Source: Candidatus Poribacteria bacterium
GTDB lineage: Bacteria > Poribacteria > WGA-4E > JAJDTR01
NCBI GenBank assembly: GCA_965222225.1
Contig: CBDCTK010000002.1
Coordinates: forward strand, 1,120,001-1,184,000
DNA: 64,000 bases
Direction of reading: 5' to 3'
Shown here: positions 6,736 through 26,621 of the stretch, piece after piece
How positions within the stretch are numbered: the stretch's first letter is position 1
Layout of the letters: each line of letters starts with the position of its first letter
Notes under the pieces: generated by a model
Seen by the model: only the letters and a program-made list of their open reading frames with translations
Database searches by the model: none
What the model was told of the DNA's origin: nothing
Position numbers and translations under genes: made by a program

Positions 6736-9267
6736 ATGGCAGATAGTGTAAACGCGAACCCGTTACTATCACCGGTTCAGCCGCTGACGGTCGATTACAA
6801 TCGAGAACGCATAGAAGACATTGGATACATGACATGTATGACGTTAGTGTTGCTCGGCAATTACGCTCAAACTGGCCATTTCGGCGGCCCATTAGCATAC
6901 ACGCCCTATAACGTAGCTCTCCATCTAGCCGGCCCAGAACTAGGTGGGCTTCGCTATGACTACCGGAAGCCAAAGCATCCATTCTGTGACAAATTCATGC
7001 TCGCGGGGGGACATAACATTCCGACCGCATACGCCTTGTGGATGATTATGGGCGAGGCTATGGCACGTAAGCACTCTGCTACAGCCGATGCGCGCCATTA
7101 TGTGGATCCAGAAATCGCTATGCTCCCAATTGATGCCCTCGGTTTCCGTCGTGGGGCTGGCGCATTGAGAACTCTTCTTGAAAATCATGGTCTCGAAGAC
7201 CATCCGCTTTTTGCCCAAGCGAGAATACGGGGCATTCGTTCTCTCGCGGGTCACGCGGAAACGACTGATTTGACCAACGATGTCAATGGCGGTCCCTCCG
7301 GGATTGGTGTAGCAACGGCTGCAGGAAAAGCTGCTTTTTGGAATTTTGTAGGTGCTCCAGATTCCCTCAAGGTTTTTGCTCTCGAGGGCGAATTTGCCAT
7401 GACGGAGGGACATGCTCAGGAACTGAAAACGCAAGGTCTCGCCATGCAGGTGGGCAAACGCCTACGTATCCTGATTTCATACAATAACGCAGGAATTGAC
7501 GACACCTTGGTCGGCGGTGTTGTAGACGCCAAATATAAGCAATACCAACTCGAGGACCAGTGGACCTCCTACGCATGGAATGTATTTGCTCTTGAGAATG
7601 GCAATGATTATGACCAGATTTTGGCGGCTCTTCACACCATGGAGAATTGGGGTGCAGATGACCGACGACCAATGGTTGTCATCGGAAACACGATAAAAGG
7701 ATATTGGCCGGCAGCCGTCAATGGGAAGATTGAGGGCTATGGCGATCAACTCATCAGCTATCCAAGCCATCCCTATTCCTTAAAGATGAATTCGGAGTAC
7801 TTTGTGGCACTCGCCACAACCTTTGAACAACAGTACGGTGTCGAATTTCAAGGCATCCACGACGGACCGGTGACTGACGAGCGCGAGCGTTTGATTCAAT
7901 TCAAAACAAACATTGACGTGGTGATGTCGGTACTAGATCGCAATGGACTCGGAGACTGGTTGGCGCATCGACTCGTAGAGATTGGTGATTCGGTGCAGGA
8001 TGACTTGCCGCTGCGAGTTGATGTCACCCGCGACCCCTTCCTAGATAATCGGCTCCGCGTTGAGAATCTCCCGGTTGAACCACAGCACCTCTCGGTTACA
8101 AATCCCGTATCTGGTGAGGAGCAGGAAGTAGATATTTCGCTATTTAAGAAACCGGGGGAAGTCGCTGGAACGCGCCGCGCTATTTCTGAATTCATCAAGT
8201 GGGTCAACTACGTGACGGACAACCGCTTTATCACGCTTGCTGCCGACCTTTCCGAGTCTATCAACATAGAACACGGAAGCCTTTGGGGACACTACAATCC
8301 GGACACCAACCCTGCCGCCACTCGGTTCAAAGCTCCCATCCAAGAAGCGGGCAACGCCTCAAGTGCAATCGGGCTGGTGGGACAGAGTGCGTCGCTTGAC
8401 CCGGCGAAGTTTGCCGGCGTCTGGGCATTAAGCGGCACCTACGGCGCCTTCACACCGTTGATGTATTTGCCTGCCCGAGTATGGAGTCAGCAGAGCCAAG
8501 ACAGCCGTTTTCGTATGGGAATTTTGCACATTCTCGCCGGTCATTCAGGCCCGGAAACCGCCGCCGATGCTCGCACACATTTTGGCATTTTTGCACCTCA
8601 GGTGTGGAAACTGTTTCCGCGCGGACAAGCGATTCATGTCAGCTTCTGGGATTATAATGATGTTGCCCCTGGATACTTTGCCGCGGCCGAAATTGCAGCT
8701 CGAGACCCCAAGGTTAGTGTGATTATCATCGAAGTTGCGCGTCCGGATTTTCCGGTAGCAGATCGAAATACGTTTGCCGATAAAGACCTCAAGGCGGCTG
8801 CCAAAGGATTATATGTTATCCGAGACTTCCGCCCGAACCAACCCAAACACGGTTATGTAATCGTCCAAGGATCTAATTCTACTGTTAATCTCGTAAAGAT
8901 AATTCCACGCCTGGAAGCACAGGGCATCAATGTGAAGATTATTGCCGCTGTCAGCGAAGATCTTTTTGATCGCCAATCGGCTGATTATCGCCAATCGGTG
9001 TTGCCCCCGGAGGCAAAGTATGACATGATGGTAGTCAGCACGGGCACGCAGAGAGTCTGGCCAATCAGGGATGTTGGTCCGTTGACGGACGAATATTCAT
9101 TGACCGCCGACTGGGACAATCAGTGGCTCACCGGCGGCACAGAATCGGATGTCATCGCAGAAGCTCATCTTGATGCCGAATCTATCTTTGCTGGAATACA
9201 ACGATTCGCCGAGATGCGCGAAAACCGTATAAATCGGCAGCGTGACTTTCTCGAAAACTTGGCGTAA
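6736..9267 (+). CDS. Divergent transketolase-like ThDP enzyme
   Basis: GHFGGPL, DKFMLAGGH, LAGHAE, GGPSGIG, TIKG, ADLSES, IQE, HSGPETAADARTH follow the transketolase motif order; ThDP motif is atypical. Confidence 0.8.
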   Translation: MADSVNANPLLSPVQPLTVDYNRERIEDIGYMTCMTLVLLGNYAQTGHFGGPLAYTPYNVALHLAGPELGGLRYDYRKPKHPFCDKFMLAGGHNIPTAYALWMIMGEAMARKHSATADARHYVDPEIAMLPIDALGFRRGAGALRTLLENHGLEDHPLFAQARIRGIRSLAGHAETTDLTNDVNGGPSGIGVATAAGKAAFWNFVGAPDSLKVFALEGEFAMTEGHAQELKTQGLAMQVGKRLRILISYNNAGIDDTLVGGVVDAKYKQYQLEDQWTSYAWNVFALENGNDYDQILAALHTMENWGADDRRPMVVIGNTIKGYWPAAVNGKIEGYGDQLISYPSHPYSLKMNSEYFVALATTFEQQYGVEFQGIHDGPVTDERERLIQFKTNIDVVMSVLDRNGLGDWLAHRLVEIGDSVQDDLPLRVDVTRDPFLDNRLRVENLPVEPQHLSVTNPVSGEEQEVDISLFKKPGEVAGTRRAISEFIKWVNYVTDNRFITLAADLSESINIEHGSLWGHYNPDTNPAATRFKAPIQEAGNASSAIGLVGQSASLDPAKFAGVWALSGTYGAFTPLMYLPARVWSQQSQDSRFRMGILHILAGHSGPETAADARTHFGIFAPQVWKLFPRGQAIHVSFWDYNDVAPGYFAAAEIAARDPKVSVIIIEVARPDFPVADRNTFADKDLKAAAKGLYVIRDFRPNQPKHGYVIVQGSNSTVNLVKIIPRLEAQGINVKIIAAVSEDLFDRQSADYRQSVLPPEAKYDMMVVSTGTQRVWPIRDVGPLTDEYSLTADWDNQWLTGGTESDVIAEAHLDAESIFAGIQRFAEMRENRINRQRDFLENLA

Positions 9268-9360
9268 GTTGCACACTCTTCTCAGATGGCGAGGACAGGA
9301 TTGAATATGAGAAGTTGTCTAATGAATCATACGCACTTCAAAATGTAGGATTGAGGAAGG

Positions 9361-11118
9361 TTGGATTTCATGGATTTGAGACCTATCACGGCGAATCCTT
9401 CCCAAATAATGGTGGAGCAACTCGCGACGCTAGGAGTCAAATATGTATTCAACAACTCTGGCTCCCGAGAGGCGCATTTCTTCGACGCTCTGAATTCACA
9501 TCCCAAAATACACGGTATTCTCGGTCTACATGAAGGCAGCGTTGCAGCAATGGCTGGAGGTTACGCGCAAGTAAATCTGGACCCGGCTGTAATGCTCGTG
9601 CACCTCGGCGCAGGATTGGCTCAGTGTCTTGGCCAATTCTATAACGTATGGTACGGGGGGCTCCCTGTCGTGGTCATTACATTCGCAGGAGACACAGGAA
9701 GCTACACCGACAGGGTTAGTTTAGACCTCGGCCATAGTTTTGCGCCAACCTCAATTGCTGCGCCCATGGCAAAGGCTACTTGGACAATCATCGAACCGGA
9801 AGGACTACCTCAAGCCATTTATAGAGCCATTCACATTGCCAAGACGCCTCCGGTTGGGCCAGTGCATCTGGCTGTTTACGATCGGGCTTTGGACAATCAT
9901 CAGGTCTCGACGAACATCATCGAAACTGACATTGTAGACCTGCACCTAGGGCACCCAGACGATGATGACGTAGAAAAAATGGCACGTCTCCTACACGATG
10001 CCGAGCGTCCGGTGGTATATATTGGTGATGGAATCTGGAAGAGCGGGGCAGAGCCAGAAGCCACTGCGTTGGTTGAGCATTATGGACTTCCTGTTGTCCA
10101 CGTGTGGGGCGATCTGCGAAGCATCCCGATTAGGCACAGATTCCGTTGTGGACAGATGGCAGCCATAGAAACTCTTAATCCGGATCTTATTCTCTGCCTT
10201 GGTGTTCGGCACGCCGGGCTTGGTAAGCCTTACGATTACCACGCGTTTACCGACGGGCGTAAGGTAGTTGCCATTGGATCGGATCCCGCAAACATCAAGA
10301 ATATCCCGGGAGTTGATTTCGCGATTTTAGCGGATGAGAAGCGAACCTTGGCACGCTTGAACGAATTGGCGGAGAATCATTCTACATCAACTCGATTGGA
10401 GCTACGACGAACATGGGCACAAACACAAGCGGCATCGCTCCATGCACAACGTACCAAAGCCGAGCGCAGTTCCAAACCACAATCCGGTCGAGTTCGTCCT
10501 TGGCTGTTACGAGATGCGCTTGATGAGGCATTAAACAGTCGTGACGGAGGCACGGTTATGATTGAACAGTATGTCGTACCCGTGGAAAACCTCGCTAAAT
10601 CCGAAGATGTAGGGAACAACTTGTATATGATCGCTGCTGGCGGATCGGAAGGTTACGGAGTTGGCGCAGCCATCGGCGCCAAGCTAGCGGCTCTTGATCG
10701 GCCTGTTGTTGGGCTGGTCGGAGATGGTTCGCTGTGTTATGCCGATTCAGGGCTATGGACAGCGGTTCATCACGGAATTCCGTTGCTCTATGTGATTTCC
10801 AACAATCAATCTTACGGCATCGTTGCGTATCACTTTGGTCGAGCCAAAGGTTCGACAATGGAGGAAACCGATGAGTACCCCGGCGTCGTTTTGAGCGGCA
10901 TAGACCCTGTGAAGATTGCCGAGGGATTCGGAGTGGAGGCCATGTGCATAAAGGATGAGTCTTGCGTCGCAGATTCAATCGAACGTGGATTGGAAGTAGT
11001 GGAACACGAAGGGCGACCATTCCTTCTGGATGTGCATCTACCGCTAGATCTTCCAAACAACGGGAGAGGTGTAGAACCATTTCGCGCTACAGACATTGGA
11101 TACAAAGAAGAGTTTTGA
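9361..11118 (+). CDS. ThDP-dependent decarboxylase family protein (benzoylformate decarboxylase/ALS-like)
   Basis: FNNSGSRE, GLHEGSVAAMAGGYA, GDGS...NNQSYG ThDP motif. Confidence 0.88.
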   Translation: MDFMDLRPITANPSQIMVEQLATLGVKYVFNNSGSREAHFFDALNSHPKIHGILGLHEGSVAAMAGGYAQVNLDPAVMLVHLGAGLAQCLGQFYNVWYGGLPVVVITFAGDTGSYTDRVSLDLGHSFAPTSIAAPMAKATWTIIEPEGLPQAIYRAIHIAKTPPVGPVHLAVYDRALDNHQVSTNIIETDIVDLHLGHPDDDDVEKMARLLHDAERPVVYIGDGIWKSGAEPEATALVEHYGLPVVHVWGDLRSIPIRHRFRCGQMAAIETLNPDLILCLGVRHAGLGKPYDYHAFTDGRKVVAIGSDPANIKNIPGVDFAILADEKRTLARLNELAENHSTSTRLELRRTWAQTQAASLHAQRTKAERSSKPQSGRVRPWLLRDALDEALNSRDGGTVMIEQYVVPVENLAKSEDVGNNLYMIAAGGSEGYGVGAAIGAKLAALDRPVVGLVGDGSLCYADSGLWTAVHHGIPLLYVISNNQSYGIVAYHFGRAKGSTMEETDEYPGVVLSGIDPVKIAEGFGVEAMCIKDESCVADSIERGLEVVEHEGRPFLLDVHLPLDLPNNGRGVEPFRATDIGYKEEF

Positions 11119-15031: not shown

Positions 15032-15266
15032 ATACAGACGTTGATAGGGTGGATTTTTCGGTCTTTCGTAGCCACCCAAGGACGTGGTATGGCTAGGAGA
15101 AACTGATTTTAGCAAAGAACTAATGAGCGTGGAACAATTACTTTTCTCAAACCCAGTGACATCTGACGGCAGACATTGTGCATCAGAGACTTTGATTTAT
15201 GGTCTAACATCTTGGGCAATCTGGGTAGTCGCCTATTCTATTCCTTGGAGGTTCTGATTAGGTACT

Positions 15267-16277
15267 ATGGCTGATTTGGATCGAGACGAGGTTTGGAACA
15301 ATCGTGCTGCTCAAATACGACATTTCTGCGTCGAACGCGGCATTACGAAGCTCCTTCATTTTACACGAATTGAGAACCTACGTAGCATTCTGCGAGAAGG
15401 CTTATTGAGTCGTGAGACACTGGATTCACGCGGGCAACAATACTGTTTCAACGACCAGGACCGCGTTGACGGTTATAAAAATGCGGTTTGCCTTAGCATA
15501 AGTTTTCCAAACTACAGAATGTTCTACTCAATTAGGGAAGAGAAGAAAGGTGAGGAGGTTAATGATGCCTATTGGACTGTTCTGCTCCTTGACGCTGAAG
15601 TCTTATGGGAATTGGATTGTGCTTTTTGTCACACAAACGCCGCTGCTAGTGCCATGACATCCATTTCATTGGATGAGCACAAGGAATTCAATGCTCTAGA
15701 GGCAATGTTCTTGAATGCTCCCGAGAAGCGCCGGGCACTTGATAATAATGAGCCGACAGACCCACAAGCGGAAATACTAGTGTTTAGCCCAATTCCGCAA
15801 AATCATATCAGAGAAGTCCATTTTTGGGATGGAAGCATCTTGAGACAGTGGTTGTCTGACCATCACCCATCTTTTGATGAACGGCTTGACGAAAATCAGA
15901 AATTTTTTCGACCGAGGCACGACTGGGAGATATGGAAGAGCGATGATTTGAAGAACGATGATACATCTGAGGTGCAAGAGCATCGGAACTTTTTTGAGAA
16001 TCCTGAACCACGGATAAACGACGATACATATGATTCCCAATTGAAAACTCTACCACTTTTTGTGCCATATTTAATGAGATTTCCATACGTCAAAGCCATT
16101 GACCTAGAGGTCCATTGGTACTCTGGACAGCCACAAAAGTCCATCAACTCTTTTCACCAAGCTGCCAAGAAGAATGGTGTCTCTCCCGTACTTGAGATTT
16201 CAAGAGAATCAACGTCGCCACTTGGGGTTTCATTGTGTGCGTTCAATCTGAAATTTCGAGCACCAAGTGGTCAATAG
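15267..16277 (+). CDS. darT: DarT1-type DNA ADP-ribosyltransferase toxin (DUF4433) fused to the N-terminal part of a NADAR domain
   Basis: HFTRIENLRSILREGLLSR, ND..R.DG, CLSISFPN, CAFCHTNAA, PTDPQAE (catalytic Glu); the last ~75 aa (PLFVP...LEIS...LGVSLCAFNL) align with the NADAR at 16807. Confidence 0.88.
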   Translation: MADLDRDEVWNNRAAQIRHFCVERGITKLLHFTRIENLRSILREGLLSRETLDSRGQQYCFNDQDRVDGYKNAVCLSISFPNYRMFYSIREEKKGEEVNDAYWTVLLLDAEVLWELDCAFCHTNAAASAMTSISLDEHKEFNALEAMFLNAPEKRRALDNNEPTDPQAEILVFSPIPQNHIREVHFWDGSILRQWLSDHHPSFDERLDENQKFFRPRHDWEIWKSDDLKNDDTSEVQEHRNFFENPEPRINDDTYDSQLKTLPLFVPYLMRFPYVKAIDLEVHWYSGQPQKSINSFHQAAKKNGVSPVLEISRESTSPLGVSLCAFNLKFRAPSGQ

Positions 16278-16643
16278 GTAACCGTCGAATGCGCTTTTGA
16301 AGGAAGTAAAGTGTTTGAAAATGGCGGACCGTATCATGAATTGTACTCAGTTCCTCCTAGCGAGGCGAACAACGACAGTCGTTTACGGTATTCAGGAAGG
16401 GTGATTGCCTTTAACTTTTTCGGTAAAGAGTACCCGATTGAATCCAAAGATGAGTTCTACAACCGACTGTACATAACAGCACTGAAACAGGAAGGACGGC
16501 ATTTCGCTCGAAGACTTCAAAAGTTCGAGGGTTTTTCAGACATAGGTTTTAATCCACAGCGCGCTAACAATTGTCCTGCCCGCGCCACTGCACTATTTGT
16601 AGCATTGTGCCGAATCCAATGGTCTGATGAGTTCAAACTCTAA
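16278..16643 (+). pseudogene. In-frame continuation (C-terminal part) of the DarT-fused NADAR domain after the TAG at 16275-16277
   Basis: Same frame as darT; VTVECAFEGSKVFENGGPY...FSDIGFNP...NCPARA is colinear with the intact paralog. Confidence 0.82.
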
Positions 16644-16806
16644 AACCGATTATATCACGTAAGCAGTCCGCAAGGAGTTTTTCTATTTTCCACGTTCCAG
16701 GAAGAGTTGCTGTGTGGGCAGGTTACACTATGCTTTATCTCGTGTTTCGAAGGATTTTGCAGAACCCTGACTAGATTTTATAACTACTTGAAGGACGTTG
16801 AAAACA

Positions 16807-17481
16807 ATGGCGAAACGACCTGTTTTTGCACCGAATCCGAGCGAATTTCCTTATGTCGAAGTCATTGATGTAGAATTTCAATGGTATCCCGGATTTGCGA
16901 AATCACAGCTACAGAAATCTATAGATTCATTACACCTAGCCGCTAAAAGCCGGGGCATTAACCCCATTTTGGAGATATCGGGAAAATCGGCATTTGCACT
17001 TGGGGTTTCACTGAGTGCGTTCAATCTGAAACTTCAAGCACTAAGCGGCCAGACGATGAGTGTTGAATGCGCATACCAAGGGAGCAAGGTATTCGAAAAA
17101 GGCGGGCCATATCACGACCTGTACACGGTGTCAAGTAGAGAGGCGAAAACCGACGAACGTATTCAGAATTCGGGGGAGTTAATTAGTTTTATCTTTTGCG
17201 GTAAAGAATTTCCAACTGAGCCCAAAACGGCTTTCTACGATTCTTTATATATAACAGCACTATGGCAAAATAAGCAGAATCTAGCGCCTGAACTCGTAAA
17301 GTTTCAAGGTTTTTCAGATATAGTTTTTAATCCGCAACGTTCTTTCAATTGTCAAGCGCGCGCCGCTGCAATATTTGTGTCGCTGTCTCAAAATCAGTTG
17401 CTCAATGAAGTAGCAATGCAAGATCTGGATGGCTGTATGCGACTCCTGACAGATCAAAAACCACTCCTCCAATTTTCGTAA
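16807..17481 (+). CDS. darG: DarT1-associated NADAR antitoxin (DarG1/DUF6977-like)
   Basis: MAKRPVF, QKSI..LH, LEISGKS, LSAFNL, VECAYQGSKVF, TAFYD.LY, FSDIVFNP, NCQARAAA; directly downstream of darT. Confidence 0.88.
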   Translation: MAKRPVFAPNPSEFPYVEVIDVEFQWYPGFAKSQLQKSIDSLHLAAKSRGINPILEISGKSAFALGVSLSAFNLKLQALSGQTMSVECAYQGSKVFEKGGPYHDLYTVSSREAKTDERIQNSGELISFIFCGKEFPTEPKTAFYDSLYITALWQNKQNLAPELVKFQGFSDIVFNPQRSFNCQARAAAIFVSLSQNQLLNEVAMQDLDGCMRLLTDQKPLLQFS

Positions 17482-25621: not shown

Positions 25622-26621
25622 ACCCAAGTTGCTACCTAATTGAATTGAAAATCCCCGGGGTTTTCGTTAGAGTTGAGGAGTTCACTATTACCTCAATACC
25701 CTAAAGGAGAACCCATGGACATTCAAATTGTAACTGTTTTCTGTTTGTGTGACGCTCTCTTAAAAGCATTCAACCATCAACCAGACCCACAATCTCGGAT
25801 GTCTGATGCCGAAGTTATGACGACTGCACTGGTTGCAACACTCTTTTTCGGTGCCAACTTCCAAACCGCTCGTGACTTTCTCCAAACTCACGGCTATATT
25901 CCAAACATGCTCTCAAAGAGCCGGTTCAATCGACGGCTTCACCGAATTAAACCCATGTTCATCACACTGTTCGAAATCTTAGGCGAAAGTTTTGTACAAC
26001 TCAACAAGCAGAAACGCTATGCCGTAGATACTATACCAATTGTTGTTTGTGACAATTTCCGCATTCGTCGCTCAAAAATCTACACCAATGAAACATTTCG
26101 AGGCTATCAGTCGTCCAAACGTCGGTATTTCTACGGCTTAAAGATTCATCTACTGGTTACCGCTCAACGACAGCCGGTTGAATTCTTTTTGACCCCGGGT
26201 AACACCGGTGATGTTGAAGGCTTACAATACTTTGACTTCGACTTACCACCGGGCAGCCGTGTCTATGGAGACAAAGCGTACAATAACTACGATTAACTGA
26301 GCGAATAGCGAAGGCGATAGAAATTCCTATAGAAGACAGTATTGCCGAAGTTGGGGTGGAGTTGAAACCGATACGCAAGAAGAATTCAAAGCGGCAATAT
26401 CCACCATGGGAAGCCTATCTAGTCAATTATTATCGCAAGTCTGTTGAGACGACTGCGAGCTTGATTGAGAGGTTGTTGCCGCCTTCAATTCATGCGGTGA
26501 CACCACAGGGATTTGAACTGAAAGTCGTCTTGTTTGTAGTGGCTACCAGTATCAACCAATATGAACCCACTCAGAATTCACCCATATAGCCAATACCCGA
26601 TGAATAGGTAGCAACTTGGGT
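25622..26621 (+). mobile_element. IS982-family insertion sequence, 1000 bp
   Basis: 17-bp perfect terminal IR ACCCAAGTTGCTACCTA; 6-bp TSD TAATAT at 25616-25621 and 26622-26627; DDE transposase inside. Confidence 0.92.
25715..26589 (+). pseudogene. IS982-family transposase disrupted by an apparent 35-bp insertion at 26294-26328
   Basis: MSDAEVMT, SKSRFNRR, AVDT.PI, FYGLKIH, YGDKAY, then after the break IEDS...PIRKKNSK...RKSVET...HAVTPQGFELK in another frame. Confidence 0.85.

Follow-up and report, generated by a model that had tools for sequence, protein, structure and literature searches.

In the current analysis we have identified, in a window of 64,000 nucleotides from the genome of a Candidatus Poribacteria bacterium (contig CBDCTK010000002.1, positions 1,120,001 to 1,184,000), a toxin-antitoxin locus of the DarTG1 type in which the reading frame of the DarT1 toxin continues through an acidic linker into a diverged NADAR domain, is broken there by a nonsense codon, and is followed by a free-standing NADAR gene. 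The reading that we prefer, and to which we give about an even chance, is that of a three-part variant of DarTG1. The tethered NADAR would be a specialised and non-essential module acting in cis, the free NADAR would be the antitoxin acting in trans, and the cis module would have been lost at this particular locus. The parts of the locus are given below in the numbering of the whole window; all of them lie on the plus strand.

15267..16277, + strand: open reading frame (ORF) of 336 aa as present here, ending at TAG; it covers DarT1, the linker and 74 N-terminal residues of the fused NADAR
15267..15950, + strand: DarT1 ADP-ribosyltransferase domain, aa 1-228 (PF14487; phmmer match to 8baq; fold match of the AlphaFold2 (AF2) model of the relative P0002)
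15643..15933, + strand: replaced segment in the C-terminal part of DarT (gap in blastn against the loci L001 and L002)
15957..16025, + strand: acidic tether, predicted to be disordered, aa 231-253 (predicted local distance difference test, pLDDT, below 50 in the P0002 model; 8 D+E and 2 K+R)
16053..16643, + strand: fused and diverged NADAR, aa 263-458, broken at codon 337 (PF22397 in two pieces)
16275..16277, + strand: in-frame TAG nonsense codon (Lys in P0260, the nearest intact relative)
16644..16806, + strand: spacer of 163 nt separating fusion and free NADAR (conserved with L001 and L002)
16807..17481, + strand: free canonical DarT1-associated NADAR of 224 aa, the presumed working antitoxin (PF22397 over its full length)

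Fused NADAR domain and its relatives

The frame that begins at 15267 reopens after the TAG at 16275-16277 and runs to a TAA at 16641-16643, with 458 codons in all and an X at codon 337. A single stop in one DarT1-linker-NADAR frame had been noted in a preliminary description made from the letters alone, and the ORF and Pfam assignments bear it out. The linker, described there as acidic, indeed has 13 D+E against 6 K+R at aa 216-262. The family NADAR-DarT1 (PF22397) has been assigned to both sides of the stop, with profile positions 4-79 covering aa 263-333 (7.7e-13, 48.8 bits) and profile positions 85-196 covering the piece beyond it (3e-40, 138.4 bits).

Intact fusions of the two domains have been identified elsewhere (proteins are referred to by P numbers and genomic loci by L numbers). 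Among the 120 proteins listed by a word-indexed search, 10 contain both Pfam domains. The same diverged NADAR is present in P0002 (458 aa, 96% identical to the window), P0003 and P0004, and P0260 and P0277 are further intact fusions. Of the best 150 matches in a library with 1.84 billion cluster representatives, only 5 cover both domains (P0002, P0122, P0009, P0124 and P0208), the last of which (498 aa) has the reverse order NADAR-DarT and an R at the K115 position discussed below. From 185,579 species genomes scanned, 78 loci were obtained. According to an architecture table based on hidden Markov models, L001, L004, L006, L008, L018 and L040 encode DarT and NADAR within one stop-to-stop ORF; in L002, as in the window, the fusion is in frame yet interrupted. 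A free NADAR follows the fusion on its 3' side in the window, L001, L002 and L008, the last representing a separate lineage, and 11 fusion contigs are equal in exact length to a contig with a free-NADAR cluster. The architecture of DarT-NADAR plus NADAR put forward in the preliminary description is thus found to recur in L001, L002 and L008 when fusions and their second NADARs are searched for; the architecture is interrupted in the window itself, and truncations are frequent elsewhere.

The window is syntenic over ~15 kb, at 83-87% nucleotide identity, with L001 and L002, both of them Candidatus Poribacteria chromosomes on which the fusion and a free NADAR are encoded. The layout is kept in these related sponge symbionts. 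The locus is flanked by metabolic genes, namely a thiamine pyrophosphate (TPP) enzyme upstream and PhyH and NFACT downstream. The locus is therefore chromosomal and inherited.

The fused NADARs of the window lineage are referred to here as class A. The equivalents of E88, K95 and D171, along with R119, are retained in 8/8 class-A copies and likewise in the fused copy of the window. The first three of these are required for guanine de-ADP-ribosylation by the NADAR of E. coli C7, in which K115 is not needed for catalysis and rescue from DarT1 depends on it (PMC11543638, section 12); the accessible text of that paper suggests that K115 may serve DNA recognition and/or interaction with DarT1. The K115 position is occupied by N in the window fused copy and in 8/8 class-A copies. 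In the 66 free NADARs of the 78 fetched loci and the window the same column has K in 62, R in 2 and Q in 2.

Where 63 free NADARs show a column conservation of 85% or more, ten changes are common to the class-A copies (n=8), namely R4L, L42F, K60E, S70C, S110P, K114N, P139S, D145N, W146R and A187T in the numbering of the free copy. The N-terminal extension of the class-A domain is shorter by a deletion of 4 residues and its C-terminal tail is gone. A general loss of positive charge was considered and rejected, since the fused domain carries a net charge of +1 to +5 and free NADARs extend from -7 to +12. The motif differences listed in the preliminary description are all present in the window fused copy, which keeps VE, SK and FSD and has YQG>FEG, EAK>EAN, FYD>FYN and CQA>CPA. 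Two of these call for qualification. The Y>F of FEG is normal variation, the NADAR of Geobacter lovleyi having FQS, and the Q>E is also found in the intact sub-lineage of P0260 and therefore does not represent decay after the stop.

Probable duplication, divergence and selection

The class-A fused NADARs form one clade, with a support of 99 in the Shimodaira-Hasegawa-like approximate likelihood ratio test (SH-aLRT) and of 100/100 in a more careful tree, and the stem branch of this clade is 0.6-0.77 against 0.01-0.07 for its tips. Its sister group, with moderate support (91/54 in the careful tree), is the clade in which its own downstream neighbours fall. A tree in which fused and neighbour copies are constrained together is not rejected and has the better likelihood (log-likelihood, lnL, +10.3; p-AU of the approximately unbiased test 0.67). 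This topology fits an origin of the fused copy by in-place duplication of the NADAR of the operon.

To explain the fused state, the NADAR trees need a minimum of 4-5 changes and the DarT tree needs 10, 3 of them imposed by strong branches; DarT1 and NADAR have therefore been fused repeatedly. Canonical fusions with a short junction (P0006, P0007, P0011-P0016, P0122 and P0124; loci L004, L006, L018 and L040) are independent of the window lineage on both the NADAR and the DarT trees. In these fusions the MAKRP/MANRP start of the NADAR itself is still visible at the junction, all the motifs including K115 are kept, and there is no second NADAR of their own.

Relative-rate counts were made for the three class-A loci and L008, each with five outgroups. 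The fused copy has 2-5x more unique changes than its free neighbour in 20/20 comparisons (p = 0.047 to 1e-9). Fused NADARs lacking a second NADAR of their own (L006, L018, L040 and L004) are not accelerated in any of 12/12 comparisons and keep K115. Since the solo fused domains behave in this manner, it is redundancy, and not fusion itself, that would drive the divergence. L008 (6968-8359 and 9086-9826) is a second and independent locus of fusion plus free NADAR, the fused domain of which has a very long branch (1.6-1.9), a 5-residue deletion at that loop of the N-terminal extension which is also shortened in class A, and K115 retained.

The ratio of nonsynonymous to synonymous substitution rates (dN/dS) of the fused domain among the window, L001 and L002 is 0.23-0.37, which is below 1 at p = 0.001, 2e-4 and 8e-7 (binomial), and it is similar to the 0.23-0.27 of the free copy. 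The pattern in these sequences is one of rapid change during the redundancy of the copy, followed by purifying selection. The preliminary description would have given way before an absence of intact fusions elsewhere together with neutral evolution of the fused copy; intact fusions exist, and the fused copy is under constraint by this measure.

Nonsense codon and truncated alleles

P0260, the closest intact allele (454 aa), pairs with the fused copy of the window at 98/89 support in the careful tree. It has Lys at the position of the window stop codon and shares S334, T339 and E345 with the window. On this comparison the stop is a recent AAG>TAG change in an otherwise normal allele. Six window-specific substitutions, all of them in the fused NADAR, were considered as a sign of decay following the stop, and this was rejected as N334S, S339T and Q345E are among the residues found in intact P0260. 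The 336-aa product is present in the protein collection as P0250, from this genome, and P0254, which differs from it by one residue, is found on 2 other contigs. TAG is the terminator of 7/26 long ORFs in the window and is therefore an ordinary stop; recoding of TAG was ruled out on the same count.

The presence of a single stop in an otherwise open frame of 458 codons might also be taken to mean that the fusion of the window is really intact, the TAG being an error of sequencing or assembly, or being read through or recoded. We regard this as very improbable, given the recurrence of the product, with one residue changed, on two further contigs, the common use of TAG as a terminator in the window, and the nature of the change, which is a substitution relative to the Lys of P0260 and not an indel. 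As judged from the sequences, then, the window carries a real nonsense allele and the fused architecture is not functional here. The locus probably works as a plain pair of DarT1 and NADAR.

Allele counts were made on the 34 listed members of clusters 1, 2, 3 and 5, the four fusion clusters. Full-length fusions account for 18/34 of these, with intact sizes of 454-468 aa, and at least 8/34 are cut within the fused NADAR. Two members are truncated at 336 aa, and two each at 410 aa and 422 aa; the latter end just 5' of window codon 415 (CGA), as read from the sequence of one member per length. The members of 335 aa and 320 aa are frameshifts, and in L002 a TAA within the linker interrupts the fusion. 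Most of the truncated alleles still have their DarT part. Such alleles being frequent, the fused domain is therefore dispensable. By these counts it is a domain that is conserved in the long term and often lost in single strains.

These alleles also bear on the explanation that the fused copy is merely a redundant duplicate on its way to being lost, joined to DarT1 by loss of the darT stop codon, with the window representing one stage of its decay. The TAG in the window domain, the TAA in the L002 linker, the alleles of 410/422 aa and the 335/320-aa frameshifts are all in keeping with decay, as are the 2-5x faster change relative to the free copy and the loss of K115 and other conserved positions. 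We nevertheless consider it unlikely. The dN/dS of the fused domain is significantly below 1 and near the value of the free copy, the catalytic residues are present in 8/8 copies, and the layout is retained in three syntenic species that are 13-17% apart in nucleotides. Full-length alleles make up the 18/34 listed members mentioned above, and the short branches within the clade after a long stem point to a state of constraint newly reached and not to decay still under way.

DarT1 toxin and free NADAR

The Pfam family DarT (PF14487) has been assigned to aa 31-185 of the window product (1.4e-18; 67.8 bits against a cut-off of 22.5). The stricter NCBIfam equivalog toxin_DarT is not reached, at 26.8 bits against a cut-off of 150. 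By phmmer the window DarT matches the DarT1 of E. coli C7 (PDB 8baq) at 8.3e-33. The catalytic and NAD+ positions listed for the E. coli C7 enzyme in section 10 of PMC11543638 are all aligned: H17 F18 T19, N48 D49, R52, D54, M71 F72, N104, Q150 and E152 in the numbering of 8baq. The QAE motif, reported as intact in the preliminary description, is found in this alignment as Q167/E169. The DarT1 of the window thus looks catalytically intact. The guanine-contact positions K74/Y75 of 8baq are S/I in the window (S88/I89). An altered base specificity was considered on this account and rejected, both columns varying widely among 59 DarT domains, with MFYSI as the commonest form (8/59).

The segment 15643-15933 cannot be aligned to L001/L002 (proportion of synonymous differences, pS, 0.72-0.75), though identity in its flanks is 83-87%. 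P0002, P0123 and P0260 have this variant segment too, attached to differing N-terminal halves. It is likely to be a recombination tract, pointing to mosaic recombination among DarT1 alleles.

The stand-alone NADAR downstream, also reported as intact, matches PF22397 at 1.9e-82 (276 bits, profile positions 1-203 of 212) and the G. lovleyi NADAR (8bat) at 2.4e-57, and the positions of E88, K95, K115, R119 and D171 are all canonical. It most likely starts at the ATG of 16807, with MAKRP as in its relatives, and not at the TTG of 16798; AAGGA is placed 14 nt 5' of this ATG. We infer from these features that the free NADAR is the working antitoxin. The darT1 and nadar genes adjoin each other on one strand, as in DarTG1, with the 163-nt spacer between them. 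PADLOC 2.0.0 gives a weak match for DarT (33.6 bits) and leaves the NADAR unmatched.

Tethered NADAR as a proposed module acting in cis

The AF2 model of P0002, built from an alignment of 109 rows, has a mean pLDDT of 88.4, with both domains above 90, residues 231-253 below 50, and a predicted template modelling score (pTM) of 0.57. In Foldseek the DarT half of this model matches 8baq at a template modelling score (TM) of 0.85 (E = 1.1e-17), and the fused-NADAR half matches the G. lovleyi NADAR, 8bat, at TM 0.83. The model of P0007, a canonical fusion with a short linker, has a pLDDT of 91.0, a pTM of 0.74 and no disordered linker. The comparison suggests, weakly, that the domains of class A are flexibly tethered rather than packed.

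In the three-part scheme DarT1 would be the guanine-DNA ADP-ribosyltransferase of a chromosomal toxin-antitoxin or defence locus of the DarTG1 type. The NADAR of the operon would have been duplicated, and one copy tethered to the C-terminus of DarT1 by an acidic linker of ~45 residues that is partly predicted to be disordered. A burst of change under redundancy would then have brought K115>N, changes at three other conserved basic or invariant positions, the 4-residue deletion and the loss of the C-terminal tail, with purifying selection afterwards and the hydrolase triad left intact. The canonical free NADAR would serve as the general trans-acting antitoxin. The tethered domain would still bind, and probably hydrolyse, ADP-ribose adducts beside its own DarT1, damping self-intoxication, and it could do without DNA-engaging residues of its own because DarT1 brings it to the DNA. 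The Lys>TAG change would have removed this module from the window locus, leaving DarT1 with a C-terminal remnant of 108 residues (the linker and 74 NADAR residues) and the free NADAR, which would be functionally the same as an ordinary two-gene DarTG1 pair.

Several points weigh against this scheme. The common truncations (at least 8/34 listed members, together with the TAA of L002 and the TAG of the window) would fit weak or fluctuating selection equally well. The dN/dS values come from three DNA sequences only, two of them interrupted, and the co-occurrence of fusion and free NADAR on the contigs of metagenomic alleles has been deduced from identical lengths and not from DNA. AF2 predicts no confident packing between the domains of the class-A fusion. 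The apparent loss of DNA-binding residues concerns four conserved positions only, the net charge being no lower than that of free NADARs, and the loss of K115 could mean that the fused domain has no action on DNA at all.

As possible roles of the fused domain the preliminary description proposed an intramolecular brake, a reader of ADP-ribosylated DNA or a phage sensor. The tethered NADAR might accordingly be a regulatory pseudo-antitoxin that brakes DarT1 by contact or senses phage, as CapRel-type fused immunity proteins do, with DarT1 released by a phage protein or by cleavage of the acidic linker and the free NADAR mopping up the leakage. Toxin and antitoxin-derived domain do share one chain here, as in the fused toxin-antitoxin sensors described in the accessible text of PMC9712102. 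The accelerated burst with conservation afterwards, a tether that is conserved, acidic and predicted to be disordered, and the loss of K115, for which a role in DNA recognition and/or DarT1 interaction is suggested in the available part of PMC11543638, may be read in the same direction. We find this explanation doubtful. The triad and R119 are retained in 8/8 class-A copies, and a module acting by steric means alone would have no need of them; an association of canonical DarG1 with DarT1 was absent in bacterial two-hybrid according to the available text of PMC11257639; the docking of the two domains in AF2 is not confident; and there is no known trigger.

Comparison with known systems

The window locus resembles the DarTG1 systems of E. 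coli C7 and Geobacter lovleyi (PMC11543638, as far as its text is accessible; 8baq, 8bat) in its two Pfam families, in the catalytic residues of DarT1, in E88, K95, K115 and D171 of the free NADAR and in the order of toxin followed by antitoxin. It differs in that its lineage bears a second NADAR covalently on DarT1 by way of the acidic linker, and this tethered copy, unlike the NADARs of those systems, lacks K115 and the C-terminal tail and has the 4-residue deletion in the N-terminal extension. NADARs associated with DarT1 are mostly free-standing single domains according to the accessible text of PMC11543638. No description of a DarT1-NADAR fusion was found in the literature searched, including the available parts of PMC11543638, PMC11125620, PMC11257639, PMC11825919 and PMC9503650; the supplements of PMC11543638 could hold lists of architectures. 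The canonical fusions (P0007 and others) share with the window lineage the order of DarT1 then NADAR in one ORF, and differ from it in their short junction, in keeping K115, in showing no acceleration and in the higher pTM of P0007.

DarTG2, comprised of DarT2 and the macrodomain protein DarG, is likewise a pair of a DNA-base ADP-ribosyltransferase toxin and an ADP-ribosylglycohydrolase antitoxin. It differs in the fold of the eraser, which is a macrodomain, and in the base, which is thymine, and the DarT domain resembles that of DarTG2 in fold at no more than TM 0.6. DarG has a second, toxin-binding part beside its hydrolase domain (PMC11257639, in its accessible text), and so offers an earlier example of an antitoxin that acts in two ways. 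The PDB entry 7omu consists of one chain of 376 residues deposited under the name 'Thermosipho africanus DarTG', which we take to be a natural macro-DarT fusion.

The fused immunity proteins of the CapRel type also carry toxin and antitoxin-derived domain on one polypeptide, and their logic is a possible model for a tethered antitoxin domain that gates its toxin (PMC9712102, from its available text). Their folds are unrelated to those considered here, and the antitoxin domain of CapRel, as described there, is non-enzymatic and binds a phage protein. The tethered domain of the window lineage, unlike it, keeps the catalytic residues of an enzyme, and a separate free antitoxin is also present.

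Spacers, surroundings and other DarT1 architectures

The alignment of 16630-16815, which takes in coding ends, has a mean column identity of 91% against L001/L002. The alignments of 15150-15266, upstream of darT, and of 16644-16806, upstream of the free NADAR, are ~90-91% identical to L001/L002 with coding ends included, and both are slightly above the coding flanks in conservation. An Rfam scan of the intergenic spacers gave no match, and the consensus fold of the spacer, from 3 sequences compared, is weak and unconvincing. A conserved RNA element or promoter in the spacers was rejected, promoter-like sites numbering 4 against 4.8 in shuffles and terminator-like sites 3 against 2.9. A DDE transposase fragment (PF13612/PF01609) at 25673-26296, ~8 kb downstream, is the sole signal of a mobile element seen nearby.

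Other domain combinations of DarT1 have also been identified. L004 encodes at 7814-10060 a single chain (including P0006) with Macro, DarT1 and NADAR domains, that is, two erasers and a writer. This triple fusion lies directly 3' of a separate pair of WD40-DarT1 and NADAR, and the two NADARs are near-identical (branches of ~0.02). A WD40 β-propeller is very often N-terminal to DarT1 in Poribacteria (L003 5867-7795, L004 4652-6475 and many proteins such as P0015, P0018 and P0022). Ankyrin repeats (P0098, P0105, P0113 and P0118) and a C-terminal SSB domain (PF00436; P0108 and P0115) are other partners. There seems to be a radiation of DarT1 in the phylum Poribacteria, with fusions that are possibly for sensing or targeting.

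L044 has at 7700-10594 a stop-to-stop frame of 965 codons with two DarT domains followed by sigma-70 regions 1.2, 2, 3 and 4, and a NADAR gene upstream of it; this could reflect either a true fusion or two genes that share the frame. L063 (1319-2704) has tandem NADAR genes, and no DarT was detected in this locus of 9.6 kb.

Implications

Taken alone, the window gives the modest conclusion of a DarTG1 locus with an extra domain knocked out. The NADAR of DarTG1 is, as far as the accessible text of PMC11257639 goes, an enzyme with no reported binding to DarT1. Fusions of writer and eraser sharpen the question of how DarTG1 is restrained and then released during infection, most of all where a tethered eraser without K115 keeps its triad beside a normal eraser.

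A bolder possibility, which we hold to be unlikely, is that the K115-less tethered NADAR is a switch by which a type IV pair, in which the antitoxin normally never touches the toxin, would become an effector on one chain that guards itself. Infection would be sensed in the linker or the NADAR-derived domain, through a phage protein, proteolysis or the load of ADP-ribosylated DNA, and the free NADAR would set the threshold. If such a switch exists, the truncation alleles, that of the window included, would be 'unguarded' variants kept by fluctuating phage pressure, and L008 and the repeated fusions would show the tethering of eraser to writer to be a recurrent solution.

The intact, truncated and canonical-fusion alleles that occur in nature are ready-made constructs. 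They also form a natural experiment on the fate of duplicates, in which fused NADARs are fast only beside a free copy (20/20 against 0/12 comparisons).

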